From contig CAYVXV010000001.1 of the NCBI GenBank assembly GCA_964455555.1, forward strand, positions 149,096 to 213,095: DNA of 64,000 nt, in the 5' to 3' direction. The notes beneath the pieces are model-generated. The model was not told the origin of the DNA, did no database searches, and saw only the letters and a program-made list of their open reading frames with translations. The stretch comes from an uncultured Pseudomonadales bacterium. Lineage in GTDB: Bacteria; Patescibacteriota; Microgenomatia; UBA1400; PJMF01. The position numbers and the translations under genes are program-made. Positions 13,338-35,469 of the stretch are shown here, one piece after another. Every line of letters begins with the position of its first letter. The stretch's first letter is position 1.

Positions 13338-13472
13338 GCGGCCAACGAGCCTAGCGTTGTCGTTGCAACCATTGTACTGAAAATACTCCGGTCATCAAAG
13401 ACCCAGCTATTCTAGCAGATGAGCACAGGTCTGCGATTTATTAGTTCTAGTTACAGGATTTAGCCGGTCCTC

Positions 13473-14966: not shown

Positions 14967-15028
14967 GCTGTAAAGAGTATTTTAATAGTAAAGCGTTTGG
15001 ACTACTGGTTCAAGTTCTAACCAGGGAT

Positions 15029-16240: not shown

Positions 16241-16328
16241 AACAAGGCTTTCCTGCCGCTCATCTAATCATATCAGGTCGAGGTATAACCTGAGTAGGGC
16301 GAGTTGGTTCAGTTAAAAATAGGCTAAG

Positions 16329-17369
16329 TTAAAAGCCTGAAGTAGTTTCAATTGCCGGAGTAATGAATGTTAAGAAAACATTATCGAATTCTGAGCCGGC
16401 GCTTTCTCCTTCCGCCTCAATCCGGAAATATGGGTAGTAAGCCTGGGTTCTAGGAGAGTAGCGGTATTCAAGCTCTAGATTATTGACAGTGATGGTTTTA
16501 AGGGAGGTAATCTCAAAGTTGGCTGCAAGGTTTCCCGCTTCAATTATTTCAGCACTGCCGCCGGCGATTTTTTCTCTGATCTTTGACAGCGGCAGAATGT
16601 TTTTGTCTGCTATTTTTGTAGCCATGGGCGGCGGCGGGTAAAACTCTGCTTTTTTAATTTCGTAGTTAAAGCCAACCTGGATTGTTGCAAGTGATTTTCT
16701 GGCAGCTGAGTAGTAGGCGGGATAATTATCAATTAAAAAAGTAAACGGGATTACAATCGTTTCAGCAGTGCCGGCCGACGCAGTCCTGGATTCCTGAGCC
16801 AGGAAGGTGATCTCTCTTCTTAGAGGCGAGAGTTCGGGATAACCGGGAATTTGTTTAATGAAGGCGCTGGCGGCATTAATTGCAGGCTCAATTACAATTT
16901 CCTGATTATCATCTGATATTTCGGGTATCGAAACCACATACATTAGTTTGTTCTCGTGCTCAAGGAAGCTGAGTGAGCGCTTGGTCTCATAATCGGTCCA
17001 CGTACTCACCTGATATGGAGATGTGTCCTGAGGCAGGCTTAAGCTTTCTGCAACTTGTTGGGCAAAATTTCTAGTAGATGAGTAGGAAGGAGTGCCGGTG
17101 TAAACACCGAGGGTTTTGGGAAAGTCAACTTCGTCTTGAGAAATATTCATAACTACCCGTACGTTTTCGGGCGGCTTAGTAATGCCCGAGCTGATTCCTT
17201 CAATTGTCACAGGCGTGCTTTCAGGAGGTTCTGGTGTAAGGATAAGTAATAGGGCTGAACCCACCAGCACAAACCCAAGAAGGATAATGAAGTAGCGCAA
17301 TGGGTTGGCTTTTATCTTTTCCGGAATACTCCGGATTGTTTGCAGTATTTGTTCTTTATTAATTGTCAT
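16329..17369 (-). CDS. N-terminally membrane-anchored extracytoplasmic protein (possible VirB8/TcpC-like T4SS component)
   Basis: Single N-terminal TM 'YFIILLGFVLVGSALLLIL' and ~300-aa ectodomain; only positional and topological support. Confidence 0.3.
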   Translation of the reverse strand: MTINKEQILQTIRSIPEKIKANPLRYFIILLGFVLVGSALLLILTPEPPESTPVTIEGISSGITKPPENVRVVMNISQDEVDFPKTLGVYTGTPSYSSTRNFAQQVAESLSLPQDTSPYQVSTWTDYETKRSLSFLEHENKLMYVVSIPEISDDNQEIVIEPAINAASAFIKQIPGYPELSPLRREITFLAQESRTASAGTAETIVIPFTFLIDNYPAYYSAARKSLATIQVGFNYEIKKAEFYPPPPMATKIADKNILPLSKIREKIAGGSAEIIEAGNLAANFEITSLKTITVNNLELEYRYSPRTQAYYPYFRIEAEGESAGSEFDNVFLTFITPAIETTSGF

Positions 17370-17403
17370 GAGGCAATGTCTTTATCATACACGGTAGAAG
17401 TTT

Positions 17404-20400: not shown

Positions 20401-21540
20401 GGGGCTGTCAGATTTAAGGACATCTTTAAGCTCTTGGCGGAAATTGTAGCCGGTGGTAAAGCCTGAAAGTTCTTCAAGGGCAATGGTATGGTTTTTAAGC
20501 GAATCAACCAATTGAGTAGCGTGCTGAGCAAAAGCCTCGCGCTCTTCTTCTGGCAGACTGAGAGTGTAGTCTTTGTAAAAGTTCTCGAGCGCCGCCACAA
20601 ACTGGGGTGAGCGGGAAATTTTTAGGTAAAGCTCATCGAGGATTTCCAACCGGCGGCGTGGATTAGCAAAAAGCAGGCCAATTTCCGCCTTATCCTTGCT
20701 GAGCATGATTTCCATGACTTCATTGAGCAGCAGATTTTTAAGCTCGGGGTTTGCCTCCAGATAAGCATAACTAATGTCCTTGGAGACAAAAAGCTCGTGC
20801 AAAGCCCGGTTGTAAATCCATGTTGCTTCATACTGCATTTTTTCCAGATCATCTCTGGTGGCAGTAGGTTCGACCTCTTCTTCCTGAGGGGGTAGTTGGT
20901 CAGCCCCTCCGGTCTCCGGTTCCTCTGGAGTTGTTGGAGCGGCTGAAACACCAGTGGGCGCTGGTGGTTCGTTAATTTGTTCATCTAGCTCATCAACCTC
21001 ATCTTCGAGTAGGTCCTGATTGATTTCCTCGGCAGCCTCTGAAAACTCCACTATTGTTGCCCGGGCTACAGCTTGCAGTAGTTTAAGAATTTTATCTCTA
21101 TGGCTATGAGCAATAGTTTCTGATACTAATTTTTCATCATCCCGAGAACCCGCGATTTCTATCAGTAATCGCTTCTGCAGGTCGGAAGACCTGAGAAAAC
21201 TATAAGCATTCAGGCTGGCCTGAGTTTCAGCCGTACCCCTGTGTAACAAAATAGCGGCAGCATCAGAGAGCAGCAGAATAGCGTCGGTATAAAATAGGTA
21301 ATTTTTGCGGTCCTTAGGATCAATTAGGGCTTTATCAGCATCAAATAGTGAAGAGGTGTGAACCTTAAAACTGGGTAGTTGGACCGGTTGCTGATCGAGT
21401 AGTTCGCCGTTAGGTTTAAAGGCGCGGCTGAGGTCAATAACTAAATCACGGACCTTTTCAAGTTTTTCGCTTGGGTCAATAAACTTCACTTGCTGAAGCT
21501 CAGTCAAAGGGACTGATTGATTTTGCTCGTCAGGCGCCAT
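17404..21540 (-). CDS. giant membrane protein: cytoplasmic alpha-helical/coiled-coil N-terminal half, glycine-zipper membrane segment, extracellular M23 (LytM) peptidase domain plus phosphodiester-glycosidase (NAGPA/DUF2233)-like domain
   Basis: M23 signature 'GTHVIVDTGSY...GNSSGNHLHFETVGIDV' (HxxxD and HLHFE); C-terminal 'FIFLDSGGSASF' NAGPA-like motif; Gly-rich 'GGLVGGIGGGIAGFLIGGPVGAVVGAGLGAAVGANAG'. The ORF track starts at TTG 21618; ATG (MAPDEQ) at 21540 is preceded by a 'tataat'. Confidence 0.7.
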   Translation of the reverse strand: MAPDEQNQSVPLTELQQVKFIDPSEKLEKVRDLVIDLSRAFKPNGELLDQQPVQLPSFKVHTSSLFDADKALIDPKDRKNYLFYTDAILLLSDAAAILLHRGTAETQASLNAYSFLRSSDLQKRLLIEIAGSRDDEKLVSETIAHSHRDKILKLLQAVARATIVEFSEAAEEINQDLLEDEVDELDEQINEPPAPTGVSAAPTTPEEPETGGADQLPPQEEEVEPTATRDDLEKMQYEATWIYNRALHELFVSKDISYAYLEANPELKNLLLNEVMEIMLSKDKAEIGLLFANPRRRLEILDELYLKISRSPQFVAALENFYKDYTLSLPEEEREAFAQHATQLVDSLKNHTIALEELSGFTTGYNFRQELKDVLKSDSPTIVGLGTREFTQVEGRIQVALKSLLINQGAEFEFVNIDVSSQASLQSLATHPHTAAWLLQHMSDEHLLLMLGIPEEYRLTEDAIRRLRKLLIKYAQLFAVELALEAEKTSLSAGLAPLSGKEADELAAGNHQIFERRLLPSLSSASSSVQEHGAERVARAVTNSVKDQHKRHLIAWNALSPDEKTLIYEYLGHDLDKITDRNMVPTNIHLLNFAELQMRAQEAIQLQAEIDQERLFQLETAHQEAIYIENLRRFYVESFIAQTSLEERERILEQLEYESLAALHQASLMELIQANEAAVSESHGGAPVGAGGDRTYSADDVAGVPAGIPGAQRPPPGGIRGRFASARSRFTDRFSKKVDARGKALSALKKAGGDKLATKALAAAGPWGKAAALLADKKKRKWILGALAVGGAFVVQGLIKMFTAGISGLIGGLVGGIGGGIAGFLIGGPVGAVVGAGLGAAVGANAGAAIGGGGFSLPSFGGSTGTSSYPALGSSSLPPSAQTAGATTGATGTATAGGSYNVAGTAASYLSTLPVGTAAAAGTIAGSILISLITLLIIFAAFLGPLPASYKSSTFDRTLSNFEGCWPTTGVIRAYQNYDPTLCAGCGGPHAVIRGGYGSYPGDGVAIDITTWDNSASDGGANAPVFTPYAGTASFYPDGTGMRSSDGQYKYGTHVIVDTGSYIMIFAHLLDFAPGISMSNITRDLQVQAGELLGRVDSTGNSSGNHLHFETVGIDVLDILPLTAAEKSAIRADESAIYGMSVNSRDCAAAQDDDDAGVSGYVAIGPKTADNFVVSNSAEASSPKYTCDWFRNNPELDVAINANYYNTPTQPIGIGGANPPVYFANANGRDPAYMEQTMRMFTVDNSGNFRIDPVPSAWYNRTDMPFVVGGYQKAVTGVLSDHPDGGGERNRVALGYGNANGECTDFTGEAIIFASIRTGNYSDLADIMQQCGADQFIFLDSGGSASFCSNSLSMPGGRPMPVNIGLKNAFIQTVGTSN

Positions 21541-21719
21541 GCTTTGATTATAGCGCAGGGTGTGTAGAGAATGGGAGGGTGAAGCGGGTATGTAAACCGC
21601 TGCTTTTCCTTTTTTCAACGTGTATGAAATAATAGAGCTATATTTACCTGCGGAAGGTTTTAAGTGTTAGTAGTTGATGCCAGATGTAATCATCAGGCGT
21701 TTTTGATATAATTCAGACA

Positions 21720-24575
21720 ATGAGCGAAGGAACCCCCATTACCCCCAATCCTGAAAATCAAGAAGAGCGGCCAAATCAAGATGCTGAGAAAGATGCTAAT
21801 GGGTTGGAGGGTGAGACTGGTGGTGAAACTTGGGAAAGTTTTAATAAAGAAATTACAAACAACATAAAGACACTTCTTCTTAGAGTATCAAAATTGAACC
21901 AAAAGGGATCAATTGATCAAAAAGGGACTCAGCAGGCAATAAGAGATTTGCAAGAAGTTCAGGATCGATTAGAACTTGCGATAGTAGATGAGTATTTTGA
22001 TCACTACGATGAGCTCTTAAAAAAACACTCTCTTCTTCAGTTAAAAATAGACCAGCTGATCTCTAGAGTTCAAACTGCAGACACTCCATCACCACAACAA
22101 CAAGATGCAGACGAACAACCGCAGGCCAGGTTTGAAAAGCCTTCTAAAATTAACAACCTTGACTTGCTGTTGGCGGATATCCAACCAAGAATAACCGCTC
22201 TTAAAGGCAGGTTAAGCCGTGATTTTGATCTTGATAATCCCACTGATAAAACAGAACTGGATTCAATTGGCGCTGAGCTAAGCTTAGAACAGCCGAAAAT
22301 TTCTGAACTGAAGTCGGCATTGGCTTGGGCTGAAAGGCATTTGGCAGGTGTAGTCTCAAGAGATTTGCCTGGCATGACTGATGATGAAAAAACTGATTAT
22401 GAGGTTGAATTAACTACCCAAATCGAATTGGCGAGTCAGTTAGCCAAAACTTATCAAGAGCTAATTAATTTAAAGCTGCAGAAGGAGCTTCCAAAACCAG
22501 AACCAGCCCGAGCTTCTTATGACTCTGTCACAGTGGAAAGATGGAGAAAGTTTGATATATATGAACTTTTCCGCATGTGGTATACAGGCAGTATTGCAGC
22601 CGACAGCGAACCCAAGCAAGCTTATGATGTTGTTTTTGAGGAAAAACTTGATGAAATTAGGGCTGATTTCATAGCTAAGGCTTTGGAGGTAGATGCTGGC
22701 AGCGGAAAGACTGAGGAAACTATTCGAGCTGAGGCTGAAAAGAGATATCAAGACTTTAGGTCACTTTGTGAAATGATGAATGACCTGATTGATTTTGGGA
22801 TTATGTCAGCAGCGAGTTTAAACATGGGTCAGTTGACGGCTAAACACGAAACAATTTTAGCCAAAGCAGCGAGCGCTGATGCCATGAACCTAAATAGCAA
22901 ATTTAACACACATGCCTTGGTGCGTTCAGAGGGAGTTGATCAGAAAGAGCAGTACTCTGACGACATGGGTTTGGTTCAGAGGATGGTCTTTGCCATGCTG
23001 CAAGAATTAAAGAAAAAAGGGAATTATCCTAAAGATCCGGGGAATGGTCAGAGCACAGACAGCCGTTTCTCAAGAAACCAGGGATTTTCCGCCAATCTTT
23101 CTGGTGAACTATTAGATATGGTGTCAGGCTTGGATCGAATTAGGACTCACGAAGGTTATGGGGGAAATAGATTAGAAATTTTAAATATCGGGCAGGAACT
23201 TAGGTACTACCCTGAATTAGCGAAAAAACTTCTTAAGCACTTTGCTAAACAAAAAGCCACGCGCGACGACATAGGTTCTGAGGCAGGCATGTATCATCTG
23301 GGCAGAAACAAAGGTGCTTTTAAATTTGCTGATGGAGCTTCCGGAAGACCAGCGGGCTTGCTGCCAGCCATTCTTTATCAGGTTGGAAAAAATTCTGCCA
23401 GGGAGAGCCATGCCGCTATGTTGTGGTTTGTTAACCCAACTAAGGTTGATGCGCTAATGGCCTTCGGCAGACCTGGCCCCGGAGAAGATTTGGATGACCA
23501 TACAACTTGGAAAGATACAAAGATTGAACCAGGGGCTCCCCCAAGAGAAGTACCTGACCCAGAAGCAAGACAAAACAAGGAAGTTGTTAGAGTAAGAAAG
23601 TTGGTTGAAAAATATTTCTTATGGGCAAACCCACAATGGGCAGAGGCAAGAGGGTTTTTACCATACAAACCCACCGAGTGGTATGAAGACTTCCCAAACC
23701 TTTCAGAGTTCTTTAATCAGTCAGAGGCCACAGTACTTTCTCCGGATTATATTCAGTCAAGAGACGCAGTATTAAAAATTATTGAGATGGCAGCTCAGTC
23801 TCCTTTAACAAACCTAAGCACGATCACTACGCAGATGGAGGAGAAAATTCAGGTGCTTGTTAAAACCTTTAACTCTGAAATCGGCAAAGCGATGGCCTAC
23901 ATCGGACCCTATGCTTTAGATACTGAAGAAGAAGATGATACGAAGAAGAAATTTAAGAAAGTTTTGGAAGATATTCGGGAAGTTAAAAAAGAAATTGAGG
24001 ACTCTGGCAAGCCTGAAGATGATCCTGATAATCAGGCTAATAAAGAAAAGCTGAAAGAACTCCAAAAAGAAGAGAGGCGGTTGAGACCCAAATATAGGTT
24101 GCAGCAGAACCAGTATGTTCACGAACTCATCATCGCTTGCTATCAATTTTTCTTGGCAAATATCTTAATGAGTGTTCCCTCAGGTGACATACCGCTGATT
24201 AATCCGGGTGGTGTGCGCACTAGGGAATATGACACTCTCTATGTCAGAGCTGTAAAAACAATGAGAAATACTATTTCACAAAATACCACATTAACTAGAT
24301 ATTGGCCGATGATTATTGGAACAGCGGCGCCTGCAAACAGCAAGCATCCAGCCGTTGACTTCATCGGGCAACCGGAATTAAAGAGGCGGTGGAGAGAAGA
24401 CGCAAGACTTGCCAATGAGTATCTTAGGTGGGTGTTGGAAAATGAACCAGACAGAGCTGAGATGGGTGCATTTGAGCGCGCAAAATACATGAGAGAGGAG
24501 AGACCTCATTCTCCAATAAATGTCAAAGAAGGCTGGAAGTCTTCTTATCAGGATCCCACTGAGCAGAAAATGTAA
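21720..24575 (+). CDS. hypothetical 951-aa soluble protein, coiled-coil-rich N-terminus, no recognisable catalytic motif
   Basis: Long ORF with uniform coding character, divergent from the T4SS-like operon across a 100-bp spacer (21619-21719); no HUH/relaxase, ATPase or nuclease motif found. Confidence 0.5.
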   Translation: MSEGTPITPNPENQEERPNQDAEKDANGLEGETGGETWESFNKEITNNIKTLLLRVSKLNQKGSIDQKGTQQAIRDLQEVQDRLELAIVDEYFDHYDELLKKHSLLQLKIDQLISRVQTADTPSPQQQDADEQPQARFEKPSKINNLDLLLADIQPRITALKGRLSRDFDLDNPTDKTELDSIGAELSLEQPKISELKSALAWAERHLAGVVSRDLPGMTDDEKTDYEVELTTQIELASQLAKTYQELINLKLQKELPKPEPARASYDSVTVERWRKFDIYELFRMWYTGSIAADSEPKQAYDVVFEEKLDEIRADFIAKALEVDAGSGKTEETIRAEAEKRYQDFRSLCEMMNDLIDFGIMSAASLNMGQLTAKHETILAKAASADAMNLNSKFNTHALVRSEGVDQKEQYSDDMGLVQRMVFAMLQELKKKGNYPKDPGNGQSTDSRFSRNQGFSANLSGELLDMVSGLDRIRTHEGYGGNRLEILNIGQELRYYPELAKKLLKHFAKQKATRDDIGSEAGMYHLGRNKGAFKFADGASGRPAGLLPAILYQVGKNSARESHAAMLWFVNPTKVDALMAFGRPGPGEDLDDHTTWKDTKIEPGAPPREVPDPEARQNKEVVRVRKLVEKYFLWANPQWAEARGFLPYKPTEWYEDFPNLSEFFNQSEATVLSPDYIQSRDAVLKIIEMAAQSPLTNLSTITTQMEEKIQVLVKTFNSEIGKAMAYIGPYALDTEEEDDTKKKFKKVLEDIREVKKEIEDSGKPEDDPDNQANKEKLKELQKEERRLRPKYRLQQNQYVHELIIACYQFFLANILMSVPSGDIPLINPGGVRTREYDTLYVRAVKTMRNTISQNTTLTRYWPMIIGTAAPANSKHPAVDFIGQPELKRRWREDARLANEYLRWVLENEPDRAEMGAFERAKYMREERPHSPINVKEGWKSSYQDPTEQKM

Positions 24576-24644
24576 TGTTGCTTCAATAATTTCTGTATTT
24601 AAATTTAGCGTATTGATAAGAGGGGACAATAAAGCTTTCAAATT

Positions 24645-26405
24645 TTATTCCCGAGCTACTGGTGTTGTGAACTCACCTTTTCTTAAGCGCTCTTCTTCCC
24701 AATCAGCTTTTGCTGCCCTCTGTTCTGCTAATTGCCTCCGGGTTCTCCAATCTTCTGAGGATCGGCCTCTCTCACGCCCAAATAAGCCAGTTCGGTTTGC
24801 AATCCGCTGCAACCTAGCCTCATCTGTAAGTGCTGCTGTTCCACTATCGATTCCACTTTCTATATTTCTAAGCAATCCTGGGGAGGTGCCAATCATCGAC
24901 CCAACTCTCCCAAAAGTAGATGAACCTCTTGCAGTAGCATTTGCCATGTGTCTTCCCGTGCTATGACCGATGTTCATAAGCCTGCTTATATTCCAACGAT
25001 CACCCCTTGTCTCCACAACACCTCTTCCAAGTCCTTCGACCGCACCGGTTGCAGCACCCGCACCAGCACCCAATAATTTAGAGCTGACCGGCGCAGCTTG
25101 CCGCGCTGTCGTTGCTGCAGCCCCAGCCACCATCTCACCAAATCCTCCACTCGCCCCCAGCCTCTTCTTCACATCCTTAACAATTTCGGGCAAGGCCAGC
25201 AAAATAGCCAAGCCCATCAAGGAAGTTATCGCATCGGGCATGCCCCGGCCAACCAAGAAGGGTGGCATAAAGCCGCCATCACTGACGTTAACTTGCTGTG
25301 TAAACAGGTAGAACATTACAGCTACTACCAGAACAACAGGGAAAACTGCCAGGTTAGCAATCAGATTCCTAATCCAAGGACCGAAGGCATCTTTGCCTGG
25401 TATTGCACCGACCACCAACTGGATAGGAGCGGTCACCACCGAAATAACAATGGTGGCGTAAGATTTAAGCAGTTCAAAAAACAGCTTAAAGGCGCCGATT
25501 AGCACCGCTATGGCGATTACCAAACCTACAGTGATGCCGGCTGCCCAGCCAAAGGTGTCGCCGATAAGGCTGTTGTTAGTGCCTAGGATGGAGTTGATCA
25601 TTTTCTCAACAATATTACTGCCGGCCGAGAACCCCTCAACAGCCCCTGACTTCATAAAGACCCACGAAAGCTCAAAAATATTGTAATTGATGATGTCAGG
25701 ATTATCTCTGAAGACAACTCCAAACAAACCAATAATCAGGTACATTGATAAATACATTAGGTCGATCATGAAACCAGCTATAGCGTAGGAAAAAGTCACA
25801 AACAACAAGCTGACAATAATACTGGGAATTGCCTGCTGAGCAGTGATTGCCTGTTGATTGACCTTTTTTCTGAACATGATCAGGAAGCCGATGACAATAA
25901 AAATCACCACAAAGAACATGTAGGCAATATTCCTGAAAGTTTTCCAGAGTTCTAGAATGGGGTTAAGGGCTACAAAACCGAGGCCTTGGGCGTATGCCGG
26001 CTGGGCAATGCCAATCCCGGCAGAATTCAAAACATCTGCCACGTAAACATGAGTGTTGGCCGGAGGAGTAGCGTACATCTGGCCGATTAGGTAGGCTAAT
26101 CCCGGTACGATGCCCTGACGCTGGGCAACTGCGGGACTGCCATCTGGATTTTCATTAATCGTGCCGCCGGAAGACAAGCCATTAATCGGGACAATGTTTT
26201 GAGTTAGCTGAATAGCGGTGTAATTGAGTGTGTAATAAATTAAACACTCCAGGGAAGGATCTTCACAATTTTCGGTTGCCGAGAGGTATTCGTTGATTAA
26301 TTCTTGGTCTCTGGCTGCAGTGTTGTCTTGTGCCTGAGCAGTATTCGAAAGCACGCCAAATAGAATTACCACCACTGCTAATATACTCAGGGCACGTTTC
26401 GCCAT
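24645..26405 (-). CDS. VirB6/TrbL-like polytopic membrane protein with signal peptide and Gly/Ala/Arg-rich C-terminal cytoplasmic tail
   Basis: Signal peptide 'MAKRALSILAVVVILFGVLSNTAQA', at least 6 TM helices in the central 300 aa, hydrophilic tail; architecture typical of VirB6/TrbL. Confidence 0.6.
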   Translation of the reverse strand: MAKRALSILAVVVILFGVLSNTAQAQDNTAARDQELINEYLSATENCEDPSLECLIYYTLNYTAIQLTQNIVPINGLSSGGTINENPDGSPAVAQRQGIVPGLAYLIGQMYATPPANTHVYVADVLNSAGIGIAQPAYAQGLGFVALNPILELWKTFRNIAYMFFVVIFIVIGFLIMFRKKVNQQAITAQQAIPSIIVSLLFVTFSYAIAGFMIDLMYLSMYLIIGLFGVVFRDNPDIINYNIFELSWVFMKSGAVEGFSAGSNIVEKMINSILGTNNSLIGDTFGWAAGITVGLVIAIAVLIGAFKLFFELLKSYATIVISVVTAPIQLVVGAIPGKDAFGPWIRNLIANLAVFPVVLVVAVMFYLFTQQVNVSDGGFMPPFLVGRGMPDAITSLMGLAILLALPEIVKDVKKRLGASGGFGEMVAGAAATTARQAAPVSSKLLGAGAGAATGAVEGLGRGVVETRGDRWNISRLMNIGHSTGRHMANATARGSSTFGRVGSMIGTSPGLLRNIESGIDSGTAALTDEARLQRIANRTGLFGRERGRSSEDWRTRRQLAEQRAAKADWEEERLRKGEFTTPVARE

Positions 26406-27525: not shown

Positions 27526-30500
27526 CTAGGGCACCAGGCCGCAGTAAGAGGCTGCAGACCAGGCGTTCCAGTTGCCCCATCTCGTTCTGATTTCAATCAT
27601 TTTTTCAATATTCTTTAATGGGTCGAGCATGGCTGTTTCGCAGGAGTTGAGCAAAGCTTGGTCAGCAACTTGGCATGGTAGGTTCCAGGCGTTATAACCT
27701 GGTGTTCCGCTCACTCGGCCGCTGGCATCAGCAAGCGCCCCCGGACAATGTGCCATAAGGTTAATCTGGAAAAGGCCAATACTGTAGTCAACCGACTGGC
27801 TTGTTAGGCAGCGCTTGTTGACGGCGTCGCTGCCGCCACGGCTTTCTTTATTGCAGATGCGTGAGGCAATCTCAGCTTCTGCTTGAGGGTTGGAGAATCC
27901 AGCTTGCTCAAAGAAGGGAAGTAGTGTTTCAACACTGCAGGGCCCGGTCGGAATAATGTTGCAGCTGCCGTCTCCTGCGCCGGCACCGCTGCCACTGATT
28001 GAGCCAACTACTTCATTAGTGATTCCGCCGGCACATTTTCCAAGCAGGAACTCCTCAGTAGTCGAGCAGGAACTTAGATAGGCATGAGCTTGGCCGTAAT
28101 ATGTGTTGAGGCCCCGCTGCACGTTCCTGAGCCAATATCCCAGGCTTGCGCCCAGAAAACTGATCCCGCCTCTGCCTTCTTCTGTTGTGCCAATCCTGAA
28201 GTTTTTGGAGCAGTCATATTCCACCACCTCAATGGGCGGGTCGAGCGGAACCGGCTCGCCGCCGATAATTTCATAGTATTTTAGGTATCGGTTTTCTTCG
28301 CAGTTACCGCTAGTCGGGTCTTCCTGATAAGTATGGCTGGCACTGCCGCCGCCAAAATTTGCCTGGAAACCACTGCCGTCAAAGCGGTTTTTAGTGTCTC
28401 TCTCTTCTAGCTTGGCAACCTGCTGTTGGTTGAAGAAGGTGTGTTTCATCACTTCAGTCACTGATTCAAGTTCATAGCCAACCGGGTACACCAGGAAAAA
28501 GTCTACTTTAGCGGTTTGGCCGGCCGCGTTGCTCCATTTGCCCCTGACGACATCAAAGATAGTCTTAAGAGGGTTGTTTACAGTAGTTGCTCTTTGCGGG
28601 TTTTGGTTTCCTAAGAAAATATAATTAAAAACATCGGTACCAAAACCGTATCCCTCCCTATACACCCTTGATGAATCATCTGTGCTTGGGGGAATTATGT
28701 TGGCTGCTTCAAATATTTCCCTAACCGGTTCGCTTCCAAGGTTGTCACAACTGGGGGTGTTGCCATTTATCAAGTCTACAACTGACTTGCCCAGGACATC
28801 CTTGCAGGCTGCAGCACCATTCAAGCCGGCTAATTCTGCCGGGGTATTGCCGTCGCCTGCTAGACAATAAATTGTGCTCCCTGATCCTTGGGTTGAAGCT
28901 CCGGTGGCCTGTTGGCCGATAATAGTCCTCCTGTCCCTGGACTGCTTGTCAAAACCCGGGTTTTCCTCGTCTTCAGAAAGCTTGAATTTTTGCGGAACCA
29001 GAATATTTCTGGTCTGGCTGACTGCGTCAGTGAAGAAAAAATGGCCACTTTCTTCTCCGCCGCCTTTGTTCGTCAGTATATCAGGGATTTTAAAGGCAAC
29101 AATCAAAACTTCATGCTTTGGTTGGGCAGACTGGGAAAAAGAGAAGAAGCTAAAAGCATCGGCAACTGATCTTTGTTCGATTGAGGCAACCATAAAAGCC
29201 AGCCGATAGGAGCGGTTGATGTAGAGAGGAGTGTTTAAAATGCCTTTTTTCAGCTTGTCGTATTGAGGGGACGTATTGCCAAAAAGCCGCTGGCAGCCGG
29301 CCGTTTCTCCGCCGCTGTAGTAATCCGGCATGAAGTCGCTGATGTCATCAAGCAAAGTGTCAACAATATAGTCCGTATTGGGGATTGCCTCAGCTCTGGG
29401 AGCGCATCTGTCCCACGCTCCAAGCCGCTCACACATTTTTTGGGTGTTGGTTAGGATGCGAACAGACTGGATGCAGCGTTGTTCTGCTGCCATGAGCGAA
29501 TTAATTGGCGCAGTATTTACTTCCTGCTCAGGATAGCTTGAGGCATAGTAGTCCTCGAAGCCAAAATACTCTTCAAGGGATGAGGTCAGAAACCTTCTGC
29601 CCTCTGTATCCCGGAAGATAGGCACCCTGCCGCTTGAGGAATCAATGGTGTAATTTGATTCTGTTTCCAGCCGGATTCCCTCATAAAGCTCTAAAAAGCG
29701 GTTTATCAGGCCTTCTGTTTCAATATTAAGTTTGATGTTGGTGGGCTCGGCAGCGCAGTGGGCTTCATATCCTTGAGCTGCTAAATCCCCCCTGGTGGTG
29801 CTTACGCTTTGCTGGTCCGGCCGGCTTAGCGGATGAATGCCCCTGATGGGGTGGAGCAGATAGTATGCCGGGTCCACTAAATATTCAGGATACTTGCTCA
29901 GGTCATAGCCGAACACTCCTGATCCGCCGGCTGATAGGGCGCTGCCTCCTGGGGGCGCCTCGCCGATATAGAAAGGTTTGCCCAACTCCTGACTTTGAGA
30001 TAATGCCAGCATGGCGCTTTGTTTTTCTGATTCAGTGTAATAGTGAGCAGAGGTTACTGTAATAGCACCGATGCTGTTTGTATTTTTAAAATCTCCGGGC
30101 CCAGTGCTGTCGCAGCGGGTGGTGTCTTGACTAGCCATCTGGCCATAGCCGACATTTGAAGTTACGCCCCTTAGTTGGCTGCCGATCACTTGCCCCCAGG
30201 TTTTGTAGGCCGGCATAGCTGCAGCATTGCCTCCGCAGTGCGGTTCATTGGCCAGCTCGTAGCCCCAAAGAGCCGGATGAGACCCCAGCGCCCTGACCTG
30301 GCTGACTAAAGCTTGGTACTCTCCCTGATAACCGCTTTCATACCATTCTATTCCTGCTCCCTGAGGTATACCGCCGCCGCCATTGCTGTAATCACCGATG
30401 GCGATGATCATTTTTACACCAGCTTGCTGGGCTGCATTGAGAGCATTTTGAACACCGGCCGCTCCCTCAATCTTGGCAAAAGCTCGGACAACAGAGACAC

Positions 30501-30879
30501 CGCAGGTGTTTTTTAGCCAGGAAAGATGTTCTGCAGCTGTGCCGTCAGCGAACTCAGCGGCTCCAATATTATTAATGTTGACACCCACAAACCTGTCGGG
30601 ATATTGCTCGGCTTTTTCTCTGAGAGCTAAACAAATATCAATATTTGTATCTCTGTACCAGGAGAACTGATCTACCGCGATCTGACGGCCGTTTTGGTCA
30701 CCGCCATATTGCCAAACAAGGTATCCAGATGCTCCGGCTTGAAAAAAATCTTCAATTTCTTGGGAAAGGATGGCGGCATTGCTTTCTTGAGCGTTGGCTT
30801 TGGAAAGGTTTGCTGTTATCCCTGCCAGAAGAAAAATTGTTGCCGCTAGTGCCAGTAGTTTAAACGGGAGTATGCGCAC
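27526..30879 (-). CDS. giant secreted protein: N-terminal GH5-like (cellulase/mannanase superfamily) domain and C-terminal lytic transglycosylase (SLT, VirB1-like) domain
   Basis: Signal peptide 'MRILPFKLLALAATIFLLAGITANLSKANA'; GH5 catalytic-acid motif 'WGYELANEPH'; C-terminal SLT pattern 'CNKESRGGSDAVN...SIGLFQINLMAH...Y'. Confidence 0.7.
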   Translation of the reverse strand: MRILPFKLLALAATIFLLAGITANLSKANAQESNAAILSQEIEDFFQAGASGYLVWQYGGDQNGRQIAVDQFSWYRDTNIDICLALREKAEQYPDRFVGVNINNIGAAEFADGTAAEHLSWLKNTCGVSVVRAFAKIEGAAGVQNALNAAQQAGVKMIIAIGDYSNGGGGIPQGAGIEWYESGYQGEYQALVSQVRALGSHPALWGYELANEPHCGGNAAAMPAYKTWGQVIGSQLRGVTSNVGYGQMASQDTTRCDSTGPGDFKNTNSIGAITVTSAHYYTESEKQSAMLALSQSQELGKPFYIGEAPPGGSALSAGGSGVFGYDLSKYPEYLVDPAYYLLHPIRGIHPLSRPDQQSVSTTRGDLAAQGYEAHCAAEPTNIKLNIETEGLINRFLELYEGIRLETESNYTIDSSSGRVPIFRDTEGRRFLTSSLEEYFGFEDYYASSYPEQEVNTAPINSLMAAEQRCIQSVRILTNTQKMCERLGAWDRCAPRAEAIPNTDYIVDTLLDDISDFMPDYYSGGETAGCQRLFGNTSPQYDKLKKGILNTPLYINRSYRLAFMVASIEQRSVADAFSFFSFSQSAQPKHEVLIVAFKIPDILTNKGGGEESGHFFFTDAVSQTRNILVPQKFKLSEDEENPGFDKQSRDRRTIIGQQATGASTQGSGSTIYCLAGDGNTPAELAGLNGAAACKDVLGKSVVDLINGNTPSCDNLGSEPVREIFEAANIIPPSTDDSSRVYREGYGFGTDVFNYIFLGNQNPQRATTVNNPLKTIFDVVRGKWSNAAGQTAKVDFFLVYPVGYELESVTEVMKHTFFNQQQVAKLEERDTKNRFDGSGFQANFGGGSASHTYQEDPTSGNCEENRYLKYYEIIGGEPVPLDPPIEVVEYDCSKNFRIGTTEEGRGGISFLGASLGYWLRNVQRGLNTYYGQAHAYLSSCSTTEEFLLGKCAGGITNEVVGSISGSGAGAGDGSCNIIPTGPCSVETLLPFFEQAGFSNPQAEAEIASRICNKESRGGSDAVNKRCLTSQSVDYSIGLFQINLMAHCPGALADASGRVSGTPGYNAWNLPCQVADQALLNSCETAMLDPLKNIEKMIEIRTRWGNWNAWSAASYCGLVP

Positions 30880-30931: not shown

Positions 30932-31363
30932 CTAATATTGAAAATCAGAAGTGGGAATGCCGAATTGGGTAATAATGCTGACGCCGGTAAACTGAGAAAT
31001 TAGATTTAGGATAATAAAGGCGCTTAGAGATACAACCAAACCGATTACCGCATAGGTCATCATGCCTTTGGCACTTTGCACTTGTTGGGTGCTGCCACCT
31101 CCGGAAAGCATGTAGCGGAAGGCTCCGACAATAAACATCACAAAGCCCGCCAGCCCGATAACGGTAATGATTACCGTGAACACATTGGCAATCAGGCACT
31201 CCAATCCTTGGAGGGTGGCTACATCGCCACTGCCGTATTCTGTATCAGCTACGCAGACACCAGACCAAGATGAAGTTTGGGCAGAAACAGGTGCTGCGCC
31301 GGCGAAGGCCCCAACCAGAACAATTAAAAATAAGATTGCAGAGTGTTTAAGGCTTTTTAGCAT
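30932..31363 (-). CDS. T4SS pilin-like (VirB2/TrbC-type) paralogue P1
   Basis: Signal peptide (MLKSLKHSAILFLIVLVGAFAGAAPVSAQ), then C-terminal two-helix module 'VIGLAGFVMFIVGAFRYMLSGGGSTQQVQSAKGMMTYAVIGLVVSLSAFIIL'. Start trimmed from 31447 to the internal ATG to remove overlap with P2. Confidence 0.6.
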   Translation of the reverse strand: MLKSLKHSAILFLIVLVGAFAGAAPVSAQTSSWSGVCVADTEYGSGDVATLQGLECLIANVFTVIITVIGLAGFVMFIVGAFRYMLSGGGSTQQVQSAKGMMTYAVIGLVVSLSAFIILNLISQFTGVSIITQFGIPTSDFQY

Positions 31364-31391
31364 TAATTTAGTATAACAATTTGCGGCAGGA

Positions 31392-31967
31392 TTAGCGATT
31401 ATTAATGTTGGAGCTATTGATAAGCTCTTCCAACGAAGAATAGCCAAGGAAGTTGAGGATGATAATTAGAATAGCATAGCTGGCTGCCAAGATGATTATT
31501 CCCACAACGGCAGCTACGATGGTGCTTTGAGCAGCCTGAGTTTTGCCTTTGTCACCTCCTGAAGTTATCCATCTGAAGGCACCCAAGATTAAGTAGAAAA
31601 AGACGAGTAGGGCGGCAATTACAAAAACGAATTGCAGCAGGCTGTTAAAGAGTTCACTAAAGCTGCGGAAAAAACCTTCCGGCAGGTTGATGTCTACCCG
31701 CTGAGGTGAAACAGGAGCCTCTTCCTCTACAACAATTACTCTGTCGCCCGAATCCGTGACTACCCGAGTGCCGTCCTCCAGAATAATTACTTCTGAATCA
31801 GTCAGTGTAGCTTCATCAATTTCGGTGCTCAAATATAAAACACCGTCTTGGCCGCGGACCAAACGAACTTCGCCATCAGTGGAATCGGCGGATACAGCCT
31901 GGGAAAAGTTGAACGCCATGAAGGAAAATACAATTATTATTAGGATGCGGGATAATAGTTTAATCAT
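31392..31967 (-). CDS. T4SS pilin-like paralogue P2
   Basis: Signal peptide 'MIKLLSRILIIIVFSFMAFNFSQAVSA'; module 'FVFVIAALLVFFYLILGAFRWITSGGDKGKTQAAQSTIVAAVVGIIILAASYAIL...NFLGY'. Confidence 0.65.
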   Translation of the reverse strand: MIKLLSRILIIIVFSFMAFNFSQAVSADSTDGEVRLVRGQDGVLYLSTEIDEATLTDSEVIILEDGTRVVTDSGDRVIVVEEEAPVSPQRVDINLPEGFFRSFSELFNSLLQFVFVIAALLVFFYLILGAFRWITSGGDKGKTQAAQSTIVAAVVGIIILAASYAILIIILNFLGYSSLEELINSSNINNR

Positions 31968-32007
31968 CTATAACAACTATTATAGCGCAAAATCAGGCAA
32001 AAGTCAC

Positions 32008-32040
32008 TAAAAAAGCCCTCGATAAGAGGGCTTTTTTATT
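32008..32040. terminator. bidirectional intrinsic terminator inside the pilin array (between P2 and P3)
   Basis: aaaaaa-gccctc-gataa-gagggc-tttttt at 32009-32037; A-run and T-run on either side. Confidence 0.6.
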
Positions 32041-32059
32041 ATTCAAATGATTTCCCGGT

Positions 32060-32452
32060 TTAAACGCTTTGCAGTAAGCCTTCGAGGCCCTGTTCATAGC
32101 CGAGGAAGTTAAGGACGATCTGTAGAATAGCCCAAGCTGCTGCTAGGACGATGATGCCGACTACAGCGTTGGTGATCATGTTTCTGGCGTTTTCTGTTTT
32201 GCCTTTGTCACCTCCTGAGGTAATCCAAGTGATGGCACCTAGGATCAAGTAGAAGAAGACGAGTAGGGCTGCGATTACAAAAACAAAATTTAGGATGCCA
32301 TTGATTAGGTCACCGATGTTGCCGAAGAAACCGGTTGGAACATCAATGTCGATGTCTCCCTGGGACTGGGCAAATGCGGGTGTAATTGTTGCAACCATTG
32401 CCGAAGCGGTCACGGAAGCGTAGGCGGCATATTGTTTGAGGGATTTTATCAT
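32060..32452 (-). CDS. T4SS pilin-like paralogue P3
   Basis: Signal peptide ending 'TPAFAQS'; module 'FVFVIAALLVFFYLILGAITWITSGGDKGKTENARNMITNAVVGIIVLAAAWAIL...NFLGY', about 85% nt identity to P2 over the module. Confidence 0.65.
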   Translation of the reverse strand: MIKSLKQYAAYASVTASAMVATITPAFAQSQGDIDIDVPTGFFGNIGDLINGILNFVFVIAALLVFFYLILGAITWITSGGDKGKTENARNMITNAVVGIIVLAAAWAILQIVLNFLGYEQGLEGLLQSV

Positions 32453-32608
32453 ATACTCCTTTTCCTAAATTTTTAGATACACATAGCTAAAAAATTATAC
32501 TCATACTTCGAGTGTTGCGTCAAGTTTCGAAAATATCTTATAGTTAACATTATAACTTGGTCAAAATAGGCCGTCAAGTTGCTTGGCCTGGATGTTCTAA
32601 ATTACCAG

Positions 32609-33082
32609 TTAATCAGAGATGGTAATTCCCTCAAGGTTGAGGAAGTTAAAGAGAAGCTGCAGTATGGCGAGGACTGCTGCCAGGACAATAATGCCAATAA
32701 CAGCATTGAGCATTCTGGTACGAGCTTTTTCGAGCTTGCCACTGTCGCCTCCGGCAGTTATCCAGCCAAGTGCTCCCAAAACCAAGTTTAGAAGTACCAG
32801 AAAGGCTGCGATGGCCAGGATAATTTGCAGAATTCTGCTGATGAGCGATCCGAATTCACTACCGGGGTCGTCTTCATCTACACTGACTATTTGAGGCAGT
32901 TCGCTGGCGCCTTCATTGAGAATATCTAATCGAGGTGCGTTTTGAGTGCTACTTCCTCCGCCGCCTCCACCGCCGCCAGCGCCGGCGTCATCGGCTGCCA
33001 TGATGCTTGGGGGTGAAATAAGTAGTAGTCCGGCCAAAAGAAAGGGCAGTGATTTTTTGAGAAGGTTTTTTAATGATGGCAT
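32609..33082 (-). CDS. T4SS pilin-like paralogue P4 (Gly-rich ectodomain)
   Basis: Signal 'MPSLKNLLKKSLPFLLAGLLLISPPSIMAADD', 'GAGGGGGGGGSS' linker, module 'ILAIAAFLVLLNLVLGALGWITAGGDSGKLEKARTRMLNAVIGIIVLAAVLAIL'. Start trimmed from 33187 to the internal ATG. Confidence 0.6.
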   Translation of the reverse strand: MPSLKNLLKKSLPFLLAGLLLISPPSIMAADDAGAGGGGGGGGSSTQNAPRLDILNEGASELPQIVSVDEDDPGSEFGSLISRILQIILAIAAFLVLLNLVLGALGWITAGGDSGKLEKARTRMLNAVIGIIVLAAVLAILQLLFNFLNLEGITISD

Positions 33083-33086
33083 TAGC

Positions 33087-33515
33087 CTAATCTCCTGTAT
33101 TTGCAAATGGCAGTATTGGTGAAAGGATGCTGAATTCATCTCCGAAGAACAACCGGCTGATAAAGGCAATAATGGTAAATGAAGCAACTAGGATAATGAT
33201 GCCTATAATTGCATTAGTGAGGCGGCGCTGGGCTGCCTGCACTTTGCTGGCGTCATCTCCAGAGGTAATCCACTGCACGGCTCCCATGATAAACATCACT
33301 ATTACTACAATGGCACCGATCGTAATAGCGGCATTCCAGACAAGAACGAAGTATGAAACAAATAGCTCGCCAGAACGGGCTTCTTCCAGGCTTTCCTTGC
33401 TGCCAAGTTTTCCGGTCACAGGGTTTTCAATTTGAGCAAAGGCTGTAGATGCCTGAAAAAGTAAGGCAGAAATTGCTGTTAAAATTGAAGAAACTGCCGG
33501 CTTTAGTTTGTTCAT
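33087..33515 (-). CDS. T4SS pilin-like paralogue P5
   Basis: Signal peptide '...QASTAFAQ'; module 'ITIGAIVVIVMFIMGAVQWITSGDDASKVQAAQRRLTNAIIGIIILVASFTII'. Confidence 0.6.
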   Translation of the reverse strand: MNKLKPAVSSILTAISALLFQASTAFAQIENPVTGKLGSKESLEEARSGELFVSYFVLVWNAAITIGAIVVIVMFIMGAVQWITSGDDASKVQAAQRRLTNAIIGIIILVASFTIIAFISRLFFGDEFSILSPILPFANTGD

Positions 33516-33520
33516 GGGCT

Positions 33521-33898
33521 TTACTGTGCTCCCGGAATAATTTGTAAGAGCATCCTGCCTGGTTCGAGTAGGTTCAGGCCGACAATGCTGCCAATTAGGC
33601 CGATGATGGCATAGGCGGCAACCAAGATAATCAGGCCGATAACTGCATGAAGAATTTTTTGCTGGGCACTGGCAACTTTACTGGCGTCCCCGCCGGCGCC
33701 GATAATTTGGAAAACGGCTGTCAAGAAGTAAAAGATAAAAAATAGGCTGGCCAGGATTGTCAAGAAACCAATGACATTTGAGATAATCAACTCTAGATTA
33801 GAGAGCGCTCCTTCCTGGGTAGCGGAATCTTCACTAAAAGCAGGGCTGACAGGCTGAAATTCGCCAAGAGATTTGGCAATCATAACGGGTAGTGACAT
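33521..33898 (-). CDS. T4SS pilin-like paralogue P6
   Basis: Module 'LTILASLFFIFYFLTAVFQIIGAGGDASKVASAQQKILHAVIGLIILVAAYAII'. Confidence 0.55.
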   Translation of the reverse strand: MSLPVMIAKSLGEFQPVSPAFSEDSATQEGALSNLELIISNVIGFLTILASLFFIFYFLTAVFQIIGAGGDASKVASAQQKILHAVIGLIILVAAYAIIGLIGSIVGLNLLEPGRMLLQIIPGAQ

Positions 33899-33968
33899 AG
33901 CCTAAGTATTTTAACCTTTTTTTAATTACTACTCTAGTAGTGTGTCATTTATACCGGGCAAACTCCGT

Positions 33969-34502
33969 TTATTGCTCTAATGCCCCTTTTATTGTTGGCT
34001 CAAGTATAAAAGTTGCATCTCCAAAAAAGATTAAACCAACAATAGCGGCTATTGTATATGCAGAAACAATAACGAGCAGGCCGATTACACTAAAAGTAAG
34101 TTTTTCGCGGACTTGGGTGTTGGCTTGAGTATTTCCCATGCTGGTAATGTAGATGAAGCCGGCAGCCACGAAGTTGAGCATGGCTAGAATACCGCCAACA
34201 ATGGCAACAAGCCTAATAATGATGCTCAGGAAAGCGATAATACCGACACCATCACCAAACCTGGTTCTGATGGCAGCAGGAGGAACGACCGCCCCCACAA
34301 CTTTTGAACCAACGTTGGAGCCACAGGGCATACCTGAATCAGCCACAATCACGTTGCAGCTCGCATCAAGACACCTACAGGTTGAGCCGTTGTCGCACTG
34401 GCCCTCATACTCGCAGACAGCATTGGCCTTTTCCGGAGCAACCGCCATGGATGCTCCAACCAAGAAAACTAAGACAATGAGTGCTGCGGCTATTTTTTTC
34501 AT
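33969..34502 (-). CDS. T4SS pilin-like paralogue P7 (Cys-rich ectodomain)
   Basis: Signal 'MKKIAAALIVLVFLVGASMAVA'; eight Cys in ectodomain; module 'IVGGILAMLNFVAAGFIYITSMGNTQANTQVREKLTFSVIGLLVIVSAYTI...FFGD'. Confidence 0.6.
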   Translation of the reverse strand: MKKIAAALIVLVFLVGASMAVAPEKANAVCEYEGQCDNGSTCRCLDASCNVIVADSGMPCGSNVGSKVVGAVVPPAAIRTRFGDGVGIIAFLSIIIRLVAIVGGILAMLNFVAAGFIYITSMGNTQANTQVREKLTFSVIGLLVIVSAYTIAAIVGLIFFGDATFILEPTIKGALEQ

Positions 34503-34516
34503 GTTTTTGTTTCTTT

Positions 34517-35023
34517 TTATATGGTCGGGTTTAAGATGTAGCTGGCATCACCAAAGAAAACTAGGCCGATGATTCCTCCTAATGTGTAGAACGAAACAAT
34601 TAAAATTAGGCCAACCAAGCTTGATGTCAGCAGATTTCTAACCTTGGTATGGGTGCCGGGATCTCCTGAGCCAGTAATGTAGAAGAAGGCGGCCAATAGT
34701 ACATTAATCACAACCCAAATACCCCCGATTACGGTGGCAATCCCAATCAGCCTTGAGATAAAGAAAATTATTGCTGTTTCGCCTTCTGAGACTCCGGCAG
34801 CTTGGTTATAAACATCTGTGCCCGGAGGAGATTCTATTTGCCCGATACCAAATTCACAGCCCGCATCATTTCGGTCGCAGACATCAGATTGTTCCGGAAT
34901 AACTGTTGGTGCCGGCGATTGAGCAGCGGCCAGGGCAGCCATGTTCAGAAATATGGCAAATACCAGGGTGTAAAATACTATTTTTGTCAGAATCAGGCGG
35001 TTGTTCTTTATAAAAGTCAGCAT
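34517..35023 (-). CDS. T4SS pilin-like paralogue P8
   Basis: Module 'TVIGGIWVVINVLLAAFFYITGSGDPGTHTKVRNLLTSSLVGLILIVSFYTL...FFGD'. Confidence 0.6.
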   Translation of the reverse strand: MLTFIKNNRLILTKIVFYTLVFAIFLNMAALAAAQSPAPTVIPEQSDVCDRNDAGCEFGIGQIESPPGTDVYNQAAGVSEGETAIIFFISRLIGIATVIGGIWVVINVLLAAFFYITGSGDPGTHTKVRNLLTSSLVGLILIVSFYTLGGIIGLVFFGDASYILNPTI

Positions 35024-35025
35024 TT

Positions 35026-35397
35026 TTAGATTGGAATATTTACTCCGGTAATCATTTTTACAATCTGAACAACCCAGTAGGCAGTGAACATAATGATAAA
35101 ACCGATAACCGCTGTGGTAATAATGCTTTTAGCATCTTCCGCACCTTTTTTTCCTCCTGAAATGAATTTAAAACCGGCAAATACGATTAAAAAAAACAGG
35201 ATAATGCCTGCAAGTACAAAAAGGTTGCGGACAATTAGGTTTACAAGAAAAGCTGGATCGGAATAAAGTTGGCTGATTGGGGTATCGTCGTTGAGTCGCA
35301 GGCAGTCTCCTAGAGAAATTCCTGCACCATCAACTCCTCCGCTGCCGGGATCACAGTCAGTCTGAGCGTACGCAGTAGGCACAAGCTTGCTTAGCAT
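35026..35397 (-). CDS. T4SS pilin-like paralogue P9 (first gene of the tandem array)
   Basis: Module 'FVLAGIILFFLIVFAGFKFISGGKKGAEDAKSIITTAVIGFIIMFTAYWVVQIV'. Confidence 0.6.
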   Translation of the reverse strand: MLSKLVPTAYAQTDCDPGSGGVDGAGISLGDCLRLNDDTPISQLYSDPAFLVNLIVRNLFVLAGIILFFLIVFAGFKFISGGKKGAEDAKSIITTAVIGFIIMFTAYWVVQIVKMITGVNIPI

Positions 35398-35469
35398 CTC
35401 AAGTAATATCTTACAGCAACCCGGTGAAAAATGCCAACAATGGGCTTGTTAAGGTATACTATCACTGTT

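Follow-up and report, generated by a model that had tools for sequence, protein, structure and literature searches.

The present analysis concerns one gene and its surroundings on a 64,000-nucleotide stretch of contig CAYVXV010000001.1 (the window, by which the whole stretch is meant), which comes from an uncultured member of the Patescibacteriota. The open reading frame (ORF) occupies positions 27526..30879 of the minus strand, begins with a GTG start codon and encodes 1117 residues plus a stop; its product, which matches the database protein P0001 with full identity, is a putative tri-modular exported glycan hydrolase. Behind a predicted signal peptide, it consists of an N-terminal barrel of the glycoside hydrolase family 5 (GH5) type, a large cysteine-rich core and a C-terminal lysozyme-like domain, and it is encoded within a cluster of type IV secretion system (T4SS) genes. 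The feature described in a first-pass annotation of this DNA coincides with exactly this one ORF, and the motifs quoted there are all found, namely, WGYELANEPH at residues 205-214, NKESRGG at residues 1010-1016, and SIGLFQINL at residues 1033-1041. A scan of the 1117-residue protein with NCBIfam gave no match, nor did a scan of the 64-kb window with Rfam.

Directly upstream of the hydrolase gene lies a pilin array of nine T4SS_pilin (VirB2-like) ORFs (30932..35397, minus strand), four of which score above the Pfam T4SS_pilin cut-off and five more weakly; the array ends 52 nt before the gene on the same strand. The rest of the T4SS cluster (11211..26405, minus strand with one ORF on the plus strand) was recognized by Pfam matches and topology. 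It comprises VirB4 (11211-13337, minus), a PrgI-like protein (15029-16240, minus), a giant M23 protein of 1404 residues (17404-21618, minus) with Peptidase_M23 above cut-off at residues 1069-1137, a 951-residue ORF (21720-24575, plus), and a 586-residue membrane protein (24645-26405, minus). The last has a signal peptide, about seven transmembrane segments and no Pfam match, and it is VirB6-like by topology only. Between it and the hydrolase gene, and convergent to the latter, stands a 319-residue ORF on the plus strand (26509-27468), predicted to be cytosolic, with no Cys, no transmembrane segment and no Pfam match. The gene had been placed between a VirB6-like gene and the pilin array; the pilins are indeed upstream, whereas on the other side the 319-residue ORF intervenes before a protein whose VirB6 likeness is topological. 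The NAGPA activity that had been ascribed to the M23 giant is not supported, as NAGPA stays under the Pfam cut-off (E 0.012, 16.3 versus 25 bits, residues 1224-1390). The same M23 neighbor also has several hydrophobic segments.

The N-terminus carries a predicted Sec signal peptide at residues 1-30 (MRILPFKLLALAATIFLLAGITANLSKANA, followed by Q; 30790..30879, minus strand). It is the sole hydrophobic segment of the protein and has an AxA end, in agreement with the signal peptide already recognized in the first reading, with the predicted cleavage falling between ANA and Q. In the predicted structure, a helix spans residues 4-23 of this region. The whole protein contains 24 Cys, whereas cytoplasmic proteins encoded in the same locus have 0-1. 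The signal-peptide-like N-terminus and the 24 Cys thus fit Sec export followed by disulfide bonding outside the cell, and a predicted location of the hydrolase outside the cytoplasm fits with them.

The segment at residues 94-313 (29941..30600, minus strand) holds strands β1-β7 of a GH5 barrel, as indicated by invariant key residues, profile matches in the PDB, a structural model and Foldseek. The profile built from 32 family members matched GH5 endo-β-1,4-mannanases in the PDB with E 1.6e-16. An AlphaFold model of residues 1-345 (predicted local distance difference test, pLDDT, 88.2) shows eight strand/helix units forming a GH5 barrel, and the top 12 PDB structures retrieved with it by Foldseek (E 1e-8 to 6e-6) are mannanases or mannosidases of GH5 without exception. 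Nine residues are invariant across the 32 aligned GH5-bearing members: W56, R132, N211, E212, P213, H214, H279, Y281, and E307. They correspond to Arg on β2 (R132, codon 30484-30486), the N211-E212-P213-H214 motif on β4 with the acid/base Glu E212 (30238-30249), H279-x-Y281 on β6 (30037-30045), the nucleophile Glu E307 on β7 in the motif FYIGEA (29959-29961), and W56 on β8 in the motif GYLVWQYGG (codon 30712-30714), all on the minus strand. N211-E212-P213 lines up with the ELANEP of 3ZIZ and 1QNO, and E307 lines up with the EEYG nucleophile motif of the same two structures when the profile is re-ordered as described below. The β3 His is absent from the query, where D163-Y164-x-N166 is conserved instead; the aligned mannanases likewise show N-x-W at this place. 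The first-pass annotation had proposed the GH5 relationship and had left the two catalytic glutamates to be checked. Neither of the outcomes that would have counted against its proposal, namely, the lack of GH5 relatives or the loss of the second Glu, was found, since E212 and E307 are both conserved in 32/32 members and the relationship is upheld by the PDB profile and by the 12 Foldseek structures. Judged by these alignments, the N-terminal domain is a predicted GH5-type retaining β-glycanase whose catalytic set appears complete.

The closest known enzymes are GH5 subfamily-7-type mannanases (PaMan5A, 3ZIZ; TrMan5A, 1QNO; ManBK, 3WH9; and 3WFL), with profile E-values of 1e-15 to 6.5e-19 in this group. 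They have in common with the query the (β/α)8 barrel, the NEP Glu on β4, H-x-Y on β6, the nucleophile Glu on β7, the Trp on β8 and the Arg on β2. In contrast to them, the query barrel is compact (about 283 residues), contains four conserved Cys and is permuted; moreover, it is fused to wall-lytic modules inside a T4SS locus.

The permutation concerns the last part of the barrel. The segment α7-β8-α8, which closes the fold in canonical GH5 enzymes, stands at residues 31-93 of the query (30601..30789, minus strand), where it aligns to residues 305-347 of 3ZIZ and is modelled with pLDDT 89-98. When a profile is kept in native order, the mannanase match ends near β5 and a separate weak match pairs residues 43-85 with the β8 region in the C-terminal part of 3ZIZ. 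In the model, only seven strand/helix units follow residue 94, the last being β7 with E307, after which a disordered linker begins; the W56-bearing strand and its flanking helices stand before β1. When 14 family domains were re-ordered (residues 94-313, then residues 31-93), the resulting de-permuted profile gave one colinear alignment to residues 49-340 of 3ZIZ (E 6.5e-19), which spans NEP, H-x-Y, the nucleophile and the "lfWQwg" motif of β8. Finally, a canonical-order relative is available in P0182 (457 residues; Pfam Cellulase and GH5_mannosidase). BLASTP aligned query residues 96-307 with P0182 residues 169-380 (E 5e-16) and query residues 16-59 with P0182 residues 376-423 (E 0.002), so that the order of the two segments is swapped, which is the classical signature of a permutation. 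These four lines of evidence show a circular permutation of the GH5 barrel in which α7-β8-α8 has moved to the N-terminus, a feature not remarked in the first reading. That the N-terminal 60 residues form a separate small domain was also considered and ruled out by the high model confidence and by their alignment to the P0182 C-terminus and to the mannanase β8. The literature searched, the coverage of which was incomplete, contained no description of a GH5 enzyme with a circular permutation, so that novelty is unproven. A natural GH5 permutation together with a canonical-order relative provides a clean case for the study of glycosidase evolution. P0182 itself is encoded at L008 8001-9374, on a metagenome contig which also encodes an Alba protein and a 566-residue Glucosaminidase-domain protein; this contig may derive from an archaeon of the DPANN type or from some other organism with small cells.

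The C-terminal domain (residues 979-1117; 27529..27945, minus strand) matches Pfam SLT_3 (PF18896, cut-off 27) with 28.8 bits in the whole protein and 36 bits when isolated, and SLT_3 is matched by 8/8 aligned C-termini (best E 2.5e-14). The classical SLT domain (PF01464) is not matched by the query, its best value among the eight close C-termini being E 0.0035; a true SLT domain (66.8 bits) is borne by P0035, a distant member of the family. Two acidic residues are invariant, the candidate catalytic Glu E1012 in NKES (27844-27846) and D1031 in SVDYSIGLFQIN (27787-27789), both on the minus strand. Searched against the PDB, the profile of the eight C-termini returned two matches only, both of them c-type lysozymes (E 0.008 and 0.053). 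In the profile alignment to lysozyme, E1012 falls on Glu35, D1031 on Asp52/53 and GLFQIN on G(I/L)xQIN, and the W-x-x-W-x4-C tail of the domain lies on the lysozyme WVAWRNRC; direct comparison with the hen and human enzymes by hhalign gave a probability of 44% (E 2e-4, 40 columns). The query pattern C-x-x-E-S...D-Y-(x-x)-G-L-F-Q-I-N-x4-C...W-x-x-W-x4-C thus parallels C30, E35, D52, Q57-I58-N59, C64, W108, W111, and C115 of c-type (GH22) lysozyme. The query domain differs from GH22 enzymes in having two extra residues between the Asp and GLFQIN, in the rest of its disulfide pattern, in its bacterial origin and in its fusion to other modules.

From these matches, the C-terminal domain was concluded to be a predicted muramidase of the lysozyme superfamily. 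The proposal of an SLT lytic transglycosylase fused with the GH5 domain therefore stands as regards the superfamily and the fusion and has to be amended as regards the family, which is SLT_3 rather than SLT, with the extra invariant D1031 and with c-type lysozymes as its only PDB matches. Since both Glu and Asp are kept as in c-type lysozyme, a hydrolase mode is probable; a hydrolytic muramidase is probably at least as likely as a lytic transglycosylase, the Glu and Asp pair favoring hydrolysis. A lysozyme-C-like signature of Glu and Asp within SLT_3 raises the question of the origin of c-type lysozymes; nothing on PF18896 was found in the literature searched, again with incomplete coverage.

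The conservation just described bears on whether the protein is an enzyme at all. It might instead be an adhesin that binds glycans without cleaving them, its GH5-like and lysozyme-like domains serving as inactive modules of the lectin type. The weak single-sequence Pfam score of the GH5 domain and the compact, permuted form of the barrel could be explained in this way. Nevertheless, even in members with only about 35% identity, there is no change in the pair of GH5 glutamates, in the rest of the GH5 signature or in the Glu and Asp of the lysozyme-like domain. Such invariance would be unexpected for pseudo-enzymes, and the adhesin explanation is considered most improbable.

Between the two enzymatic ends lies the core (residues 323-955; 28015..29913, minus strand), joined to them by two Gly/Ser-rich linkers. 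Linker 1 (residues 314-322; 29914..29940, minus) is the exchange junction for N-terminal modules; it opens a stretch of low confidence (pLDDT below 50 over residues 314-345), and homology to P0002 starts at residue 321. Linker 2 (residues 956-978; 27946..28014, minus) is the corresponding junction for C-terminal modules; the last residues of the core model have pLDDT below 50, and homology to P0003 stops at residue 979. The first reading had noted about 600 residues of unfamiliar Cys-containing sequence here, which agrees with the approximately 630 residues now delimited. Residues 314-978 contain 13 of the 24 Cys, 12 in the core and one (C973) in linker 2. An AF2 model of the core has pLDDT 86.4 and a predicted TM-score (pTM) of 0.85. 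Foldseek with this model found no PDB match (best E 1.2) and none among the viral models of BFVD, and the core matches nothing in Pfam or NCBIfam. Against 1.84 billion cluster representatives, phmmer with the core retrieved 166 proteins only. The middle region is a conserved module that defines the family, a point missed in the first reading; it is confidently predicted and without a structural relative found.

In close relatives, the core is combined with other ends. P0002 shares 67% identity with the query from residue 321 to the end, but its N-terminus is unrelated; in P0003, residues 21-979 are matched with 49% identity and it is the C-terminus that is unrelated. Among the 167 members (clusters) that were classified, the permuted GH5 is found at the N-terminus of 33, and other classes account for 33, 31, 17 (β-rich), 9 and a few more; 29 of the 167 have no N-terminal domain. 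At least five C-terminal classes occur, most with E-S/E-G lysozyme-type motifs. Pairing between the five major N-terminal and the five major C-terminal classes is almost free, and the exact combination seen in the window is present in 5 of the 167 clusters. Both enzyme ends are, as far as the alignments indicate, interchangeable cassettes around a constant core, which had also escaped notice. Similar combinatorial behavior is familiar from phage endolysins, tail-associated lysins and polymorphic toxin systems, in which catalytic cassettes are exchanged in a mosaic manner. By analogy, these systems may be compared with the present family, as they likewise have combinatorial cassettes, a conserved module and junctions at flexible linkers; here, the constant part is instead a large central core, with cassettes at both ends and a chromosomal T4SS locus.

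Some of the alternative cassettes can be characterized further. The class 2 N-terminus (NEP...TE[ST]G) aligns to the de-permuted GH5 with an hhalign probability of 84%, which makes a canonical-order GH-A barrel probable. None of the N-terminal classes 2-5 has a Pfam match. The P0002-type N-terminus (YGNEVNN...LTEFSLSP) matches neither Pfam nor the PDB, and its hhalign probability against the de-permuted GH5 (1.4%, locally 0.6%) is not significant; to call it a GH-A domain is a motif-level guess. At the other end, an alternative C-terminal cassette of about 120 residues (GRAMYYGxGvMN...GCVALLRxGD...GPxxVIDVA) takes the place of the lysozyme-like domain in 20 family clusters and is carried by P0003, P0004, P0009-P0011, and P0013. 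It has no Pfam match, and a HisF match in the PDB profile search looks spurious; an RlpA/DPBB-like identity was considered for it and is unsupported by the PDB profile search and by Pfam. In P0020 (L007 10001-14488, 1495 residues), the permuted GH5 and a class-3 "GNEVNN" domain stand in tandem before the core and SLT_3, and this protein may represent an intermediate in cassette acquisition.

The family is linked to T4SS genes in 9/9 loci (the window, L001, L002, L003, L005, L006, L007, L009, and L010), linkage meaning that the gene follows a T4SS_pilin array or lies among PrgI, TraC-like, VirB4 and M23 genes. Two of the eight loci outside the window encode proteins which share with the query the permuted GH5 domain only. 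In a Pacebacteria genome whose protein is 29% identical, the next four genes are ordered as in the window. Counterparts of the 319-residue ORF occur at the same place on the opposite strand in L001 (324 residues), L003 (302), L006 (295), and L007 (326).

This linkage is relevant to the possibility of a secreted mannanase or cellulase that degrades polysaccharides for nutrition and lies in a T4SS locus incidentally. CPR (candidate phyla radiation) bacteria are fermenters that live on external sugars, and the nearest structures of the enzyme are endo-β-1,4-mannanases. The presence of adjacent pilin arrays or T4SS genes in 9/9 loci of distant lineages is difficult to reconcile with an incidental location. 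In addition, the enzyme is fused to a lysozyme-like domain, no carbohydrate-binding module was detected in the 1117-residue protein by Pfam and NCBIfam scans, and the N-terminal module is replaced by unrelated ones in close relatives. A nutritional role is accordingly held to be improbable.

A T4SS could also inject the protein itself. The effectors of the Xanthomonas X-T4SS include peptidoglycan hydrolases, and an antibacterial effector translocated into the envelope of a target cell would account for the polymorphic, cassette-like architecture and for the encoding of wall-degrading domains within a T4SS locus. However, the classical N-terminal Sec signal that is predicted, together with the 24 Cys, favors Sec export over translocation from the cytoplasm, and no secreted immunity-like gene is adjacent, the conserved neighbor being the cytosolic 319-residue protein on the other strand. 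Besides, the Patescibacterial system has no recognizable coupling protein (PMC10633639). Translocation as an effector has thus a slim chance of being correct.

By a modest balance of probability, the gene product is an exported wall-opening accessory enzyme, comparable to VirB1 and PrgK, of the Patescibacterial (CPR) T4SS/pilus system. What the analysis shows is the type of each domain, the retention of the catalytic residues, the permutation of the barrel, the modular build of the family and its association with the T4SS; the export route, the docking role of the core, the substrates and the wall that would be cut are inferred. The protein would first be exported by Sec and would acquire its disulfides, and the conserved core of about 630 residues would act as a scaffold or docking module. 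The lysozyme-like C-terminus would cut the backbone of peptidoglycan between N-acetylmuramic acid and N-acetylglucosamine, probably by hydrolysis, while the permuted GH5 N-terminus would cut a second β-linked glycan of the cell envelope. Given that close relatives exchange both ends as cassettes, a surface polysaccharide that varies between lineages is the most likely second target, and it would probably belong to the partner or host cell touched by the T4SS pilus. The cassette pattern suggests that surface glycans of a partner cell are favored as targets over polymers of the own wall, and the earlier idea of an episymbiont breaching a host envelope would be compatible with the module swapping.

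Enzymes of this functional kind are known. VirB1 of Agrobacterium, PrgK of pCF10, TraG of pIP501 and the CD419/TrsG-type proteins are likewise encoded in T4SS clusters and contain a lysozyme-superfamily domain. The hydrolases of monoderm T4SSs are multi-domain proteins like the query (PMC12102498). In contrast to VirB1, PrgK and TraG, the query has a predicted cleavable Sec signal instead of an N-terminal membrane anchor, its lysozyme domain is SLT_3 with Glu and Asp rather than a classical SLT, and it adds a GH5-type barrel and a 630-residue core. VirB2 arrays and a relationship to monoderm conjugation systems have been described for the Patescibacterial T4SS; a VirB1-type wall hydrolase was seldom found beside virB4, and other glycosidases were explicitly left possible (PMC12102498). 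According to its text and supplements, the VirB1/TrsG/CD419 profiles of this 2025 survey apparently did not recover the query family, and PF00150 and PF18896 are not mentioned in them (PMC12102498). Two key papers on CPR T4SSs make no mention of this architecture. As a putative T4SS-associated wall hydrolase, the query would be of a known functional kind; the GH5 permutation, the relative-less core and the combinatorial exchange of modules are not described in the literature searched, which is incomplete.

The principal competitor of this wall-opening role at a contact site is a pure autolysin of the own wall, that is, a strict analogue of VirB1 and PrgK which opens the own peptidoglycan and wall polysaccharide for the assembly of channel and pilus, the partner being no target. 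Its location in a T4SS cluster and its lysozyme-like domain are as in PrgK, TraG(pIP501) and VirB1 (PMC12102498), and Sec export would put the enzyme into the own wall first. On the other hand, peptidoglycan of the own wall is a conserved target, whereas N- and C-terminal cassettes are exchanged even between proteins with 49-67% identity in their other parts. Such a pattern is more typical of variable external targets, although it is not decisive, as the secondary polymers of the own wall vary too. An enzyme confined to the own wall is regarded as unlikely, if still worth serious consideration.

Several points weigh against the proposed wall-opening enzyme directed at partner cells. Module diversity can be explained equally well by diversity of the own wall polymers. 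The 29 members without an N-terminal enzyme indicate that the N-terminal domain is dispensable for core function. Known T4SS hydrolases of Gram-positive bacteria are membrane-anchored and contain CHAP or NlpC/P60 domains, whereas the query lacks both. Its barrel shares only 13-19% identity with GH5 mannanases (TM-score about 0.47), so that specificity is not inferable. The query alone reaches 18 bits with Pfam Cellulase (PF00150), under the cut-off of 23.5 which its homologues P0020 (29.1 bits) and P0035 (34.3 bits) exceed, and the link to c-type lysozymes is weak (E 0.008 and 0.05; hhalign 44%).

Patescibacteria account for a large share of bacterial diversity. To our knowledge, the cultivated ones are so far all attached to host cells, and a single species is genetically tractable. 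Southlakia requires its T4SS, pilins included, for epibiotic growth (PMC10633639). In this context, the family offers a concrete candidate for the missing wall-opener of the T4SS, as it follows the pilin array, is predicted to be exported and appears to have two intact glycan-cleaving sites. The exchange of cassettes around a constant core provides a handle on what CPR cells cut and possibly on their attachment partners. A bolder version of the partner-directed role, which we put forward tentatively and with considerable doubt, is that the protein determines the host range of episymbiotic CPR bacteria. With its core docked on the pilus or the channel of the T4SS, the protein would use its end cassettes to breach the partner envelope at the contact site. 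These cassettes comprise several C-termini of the lysozyme type and, on the N-terminal side, the permuted GH5 and at least four further classes, of which three have NEP-type motifs. In addition, SLT_3 would be a genuine bacterial homologue of the animal c-type lysozyme, and the GH5 domain a natural circular permutant of the clan GH-A barrel. If this were true, cassette swaps would retarget the symbiont to new hosts.

A few further observations concern the organization of the locus. A gene for an extracytoplasmic function (ECF)-type sigma factor (Sigma70_r2, r4_2 and ECF domains) at 35431-36012 on the plus strand is divergent from the start of the pilin array, and the order of sigma factor, pilin array and hydrolase is repeated in L003 and L006. 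This arrangement suggests that the pilin/hydrolase operon has dedicated regulation. Within the pilin array, consensus matching revealed a strong terminator-like hairpin at 32008-32038 (minus strand; 13 pairs and a T run), directly followed by a promoter-like site, GTGACT-17-TATAAT, at 31979-32007 (minus strand). The hydrolase gene and the two final pilin genes before it may constitute a separate transcription unit.

The start of the T4SS cluster (8093-13337, minus strand) adjoins dnaN and dnaA, and proximity to dnaN is seen also in L005. The DnaA encoded in the window is 80% identical to the DnaA protein P0184 and groups with sequences of Pacebacteria, Woesebacteria and Patescibacteria, which places the organism among CPR bacteria of the Microgenomates type. 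The essential T4SS of Southlakia has locus tags 0006-0019. The system seems to be anchored in the region of the replication origin across CPR lineages. In L010 (4990-8842), the permuted-GH5 gene encodes only 464 residues; behind it, still within the T4SS cluster, come small ORFs and a gene of the 23S_rRNA_IVP family. The hydrolase gene looks disrupted or split there. A 1038-residue DUF4012 protein (E 1e-26) is encoded nearby in the window at 2353-5469 on the minus strand, and a DUF4012 protein of about 1000 residues is found near the L002 locus as well.

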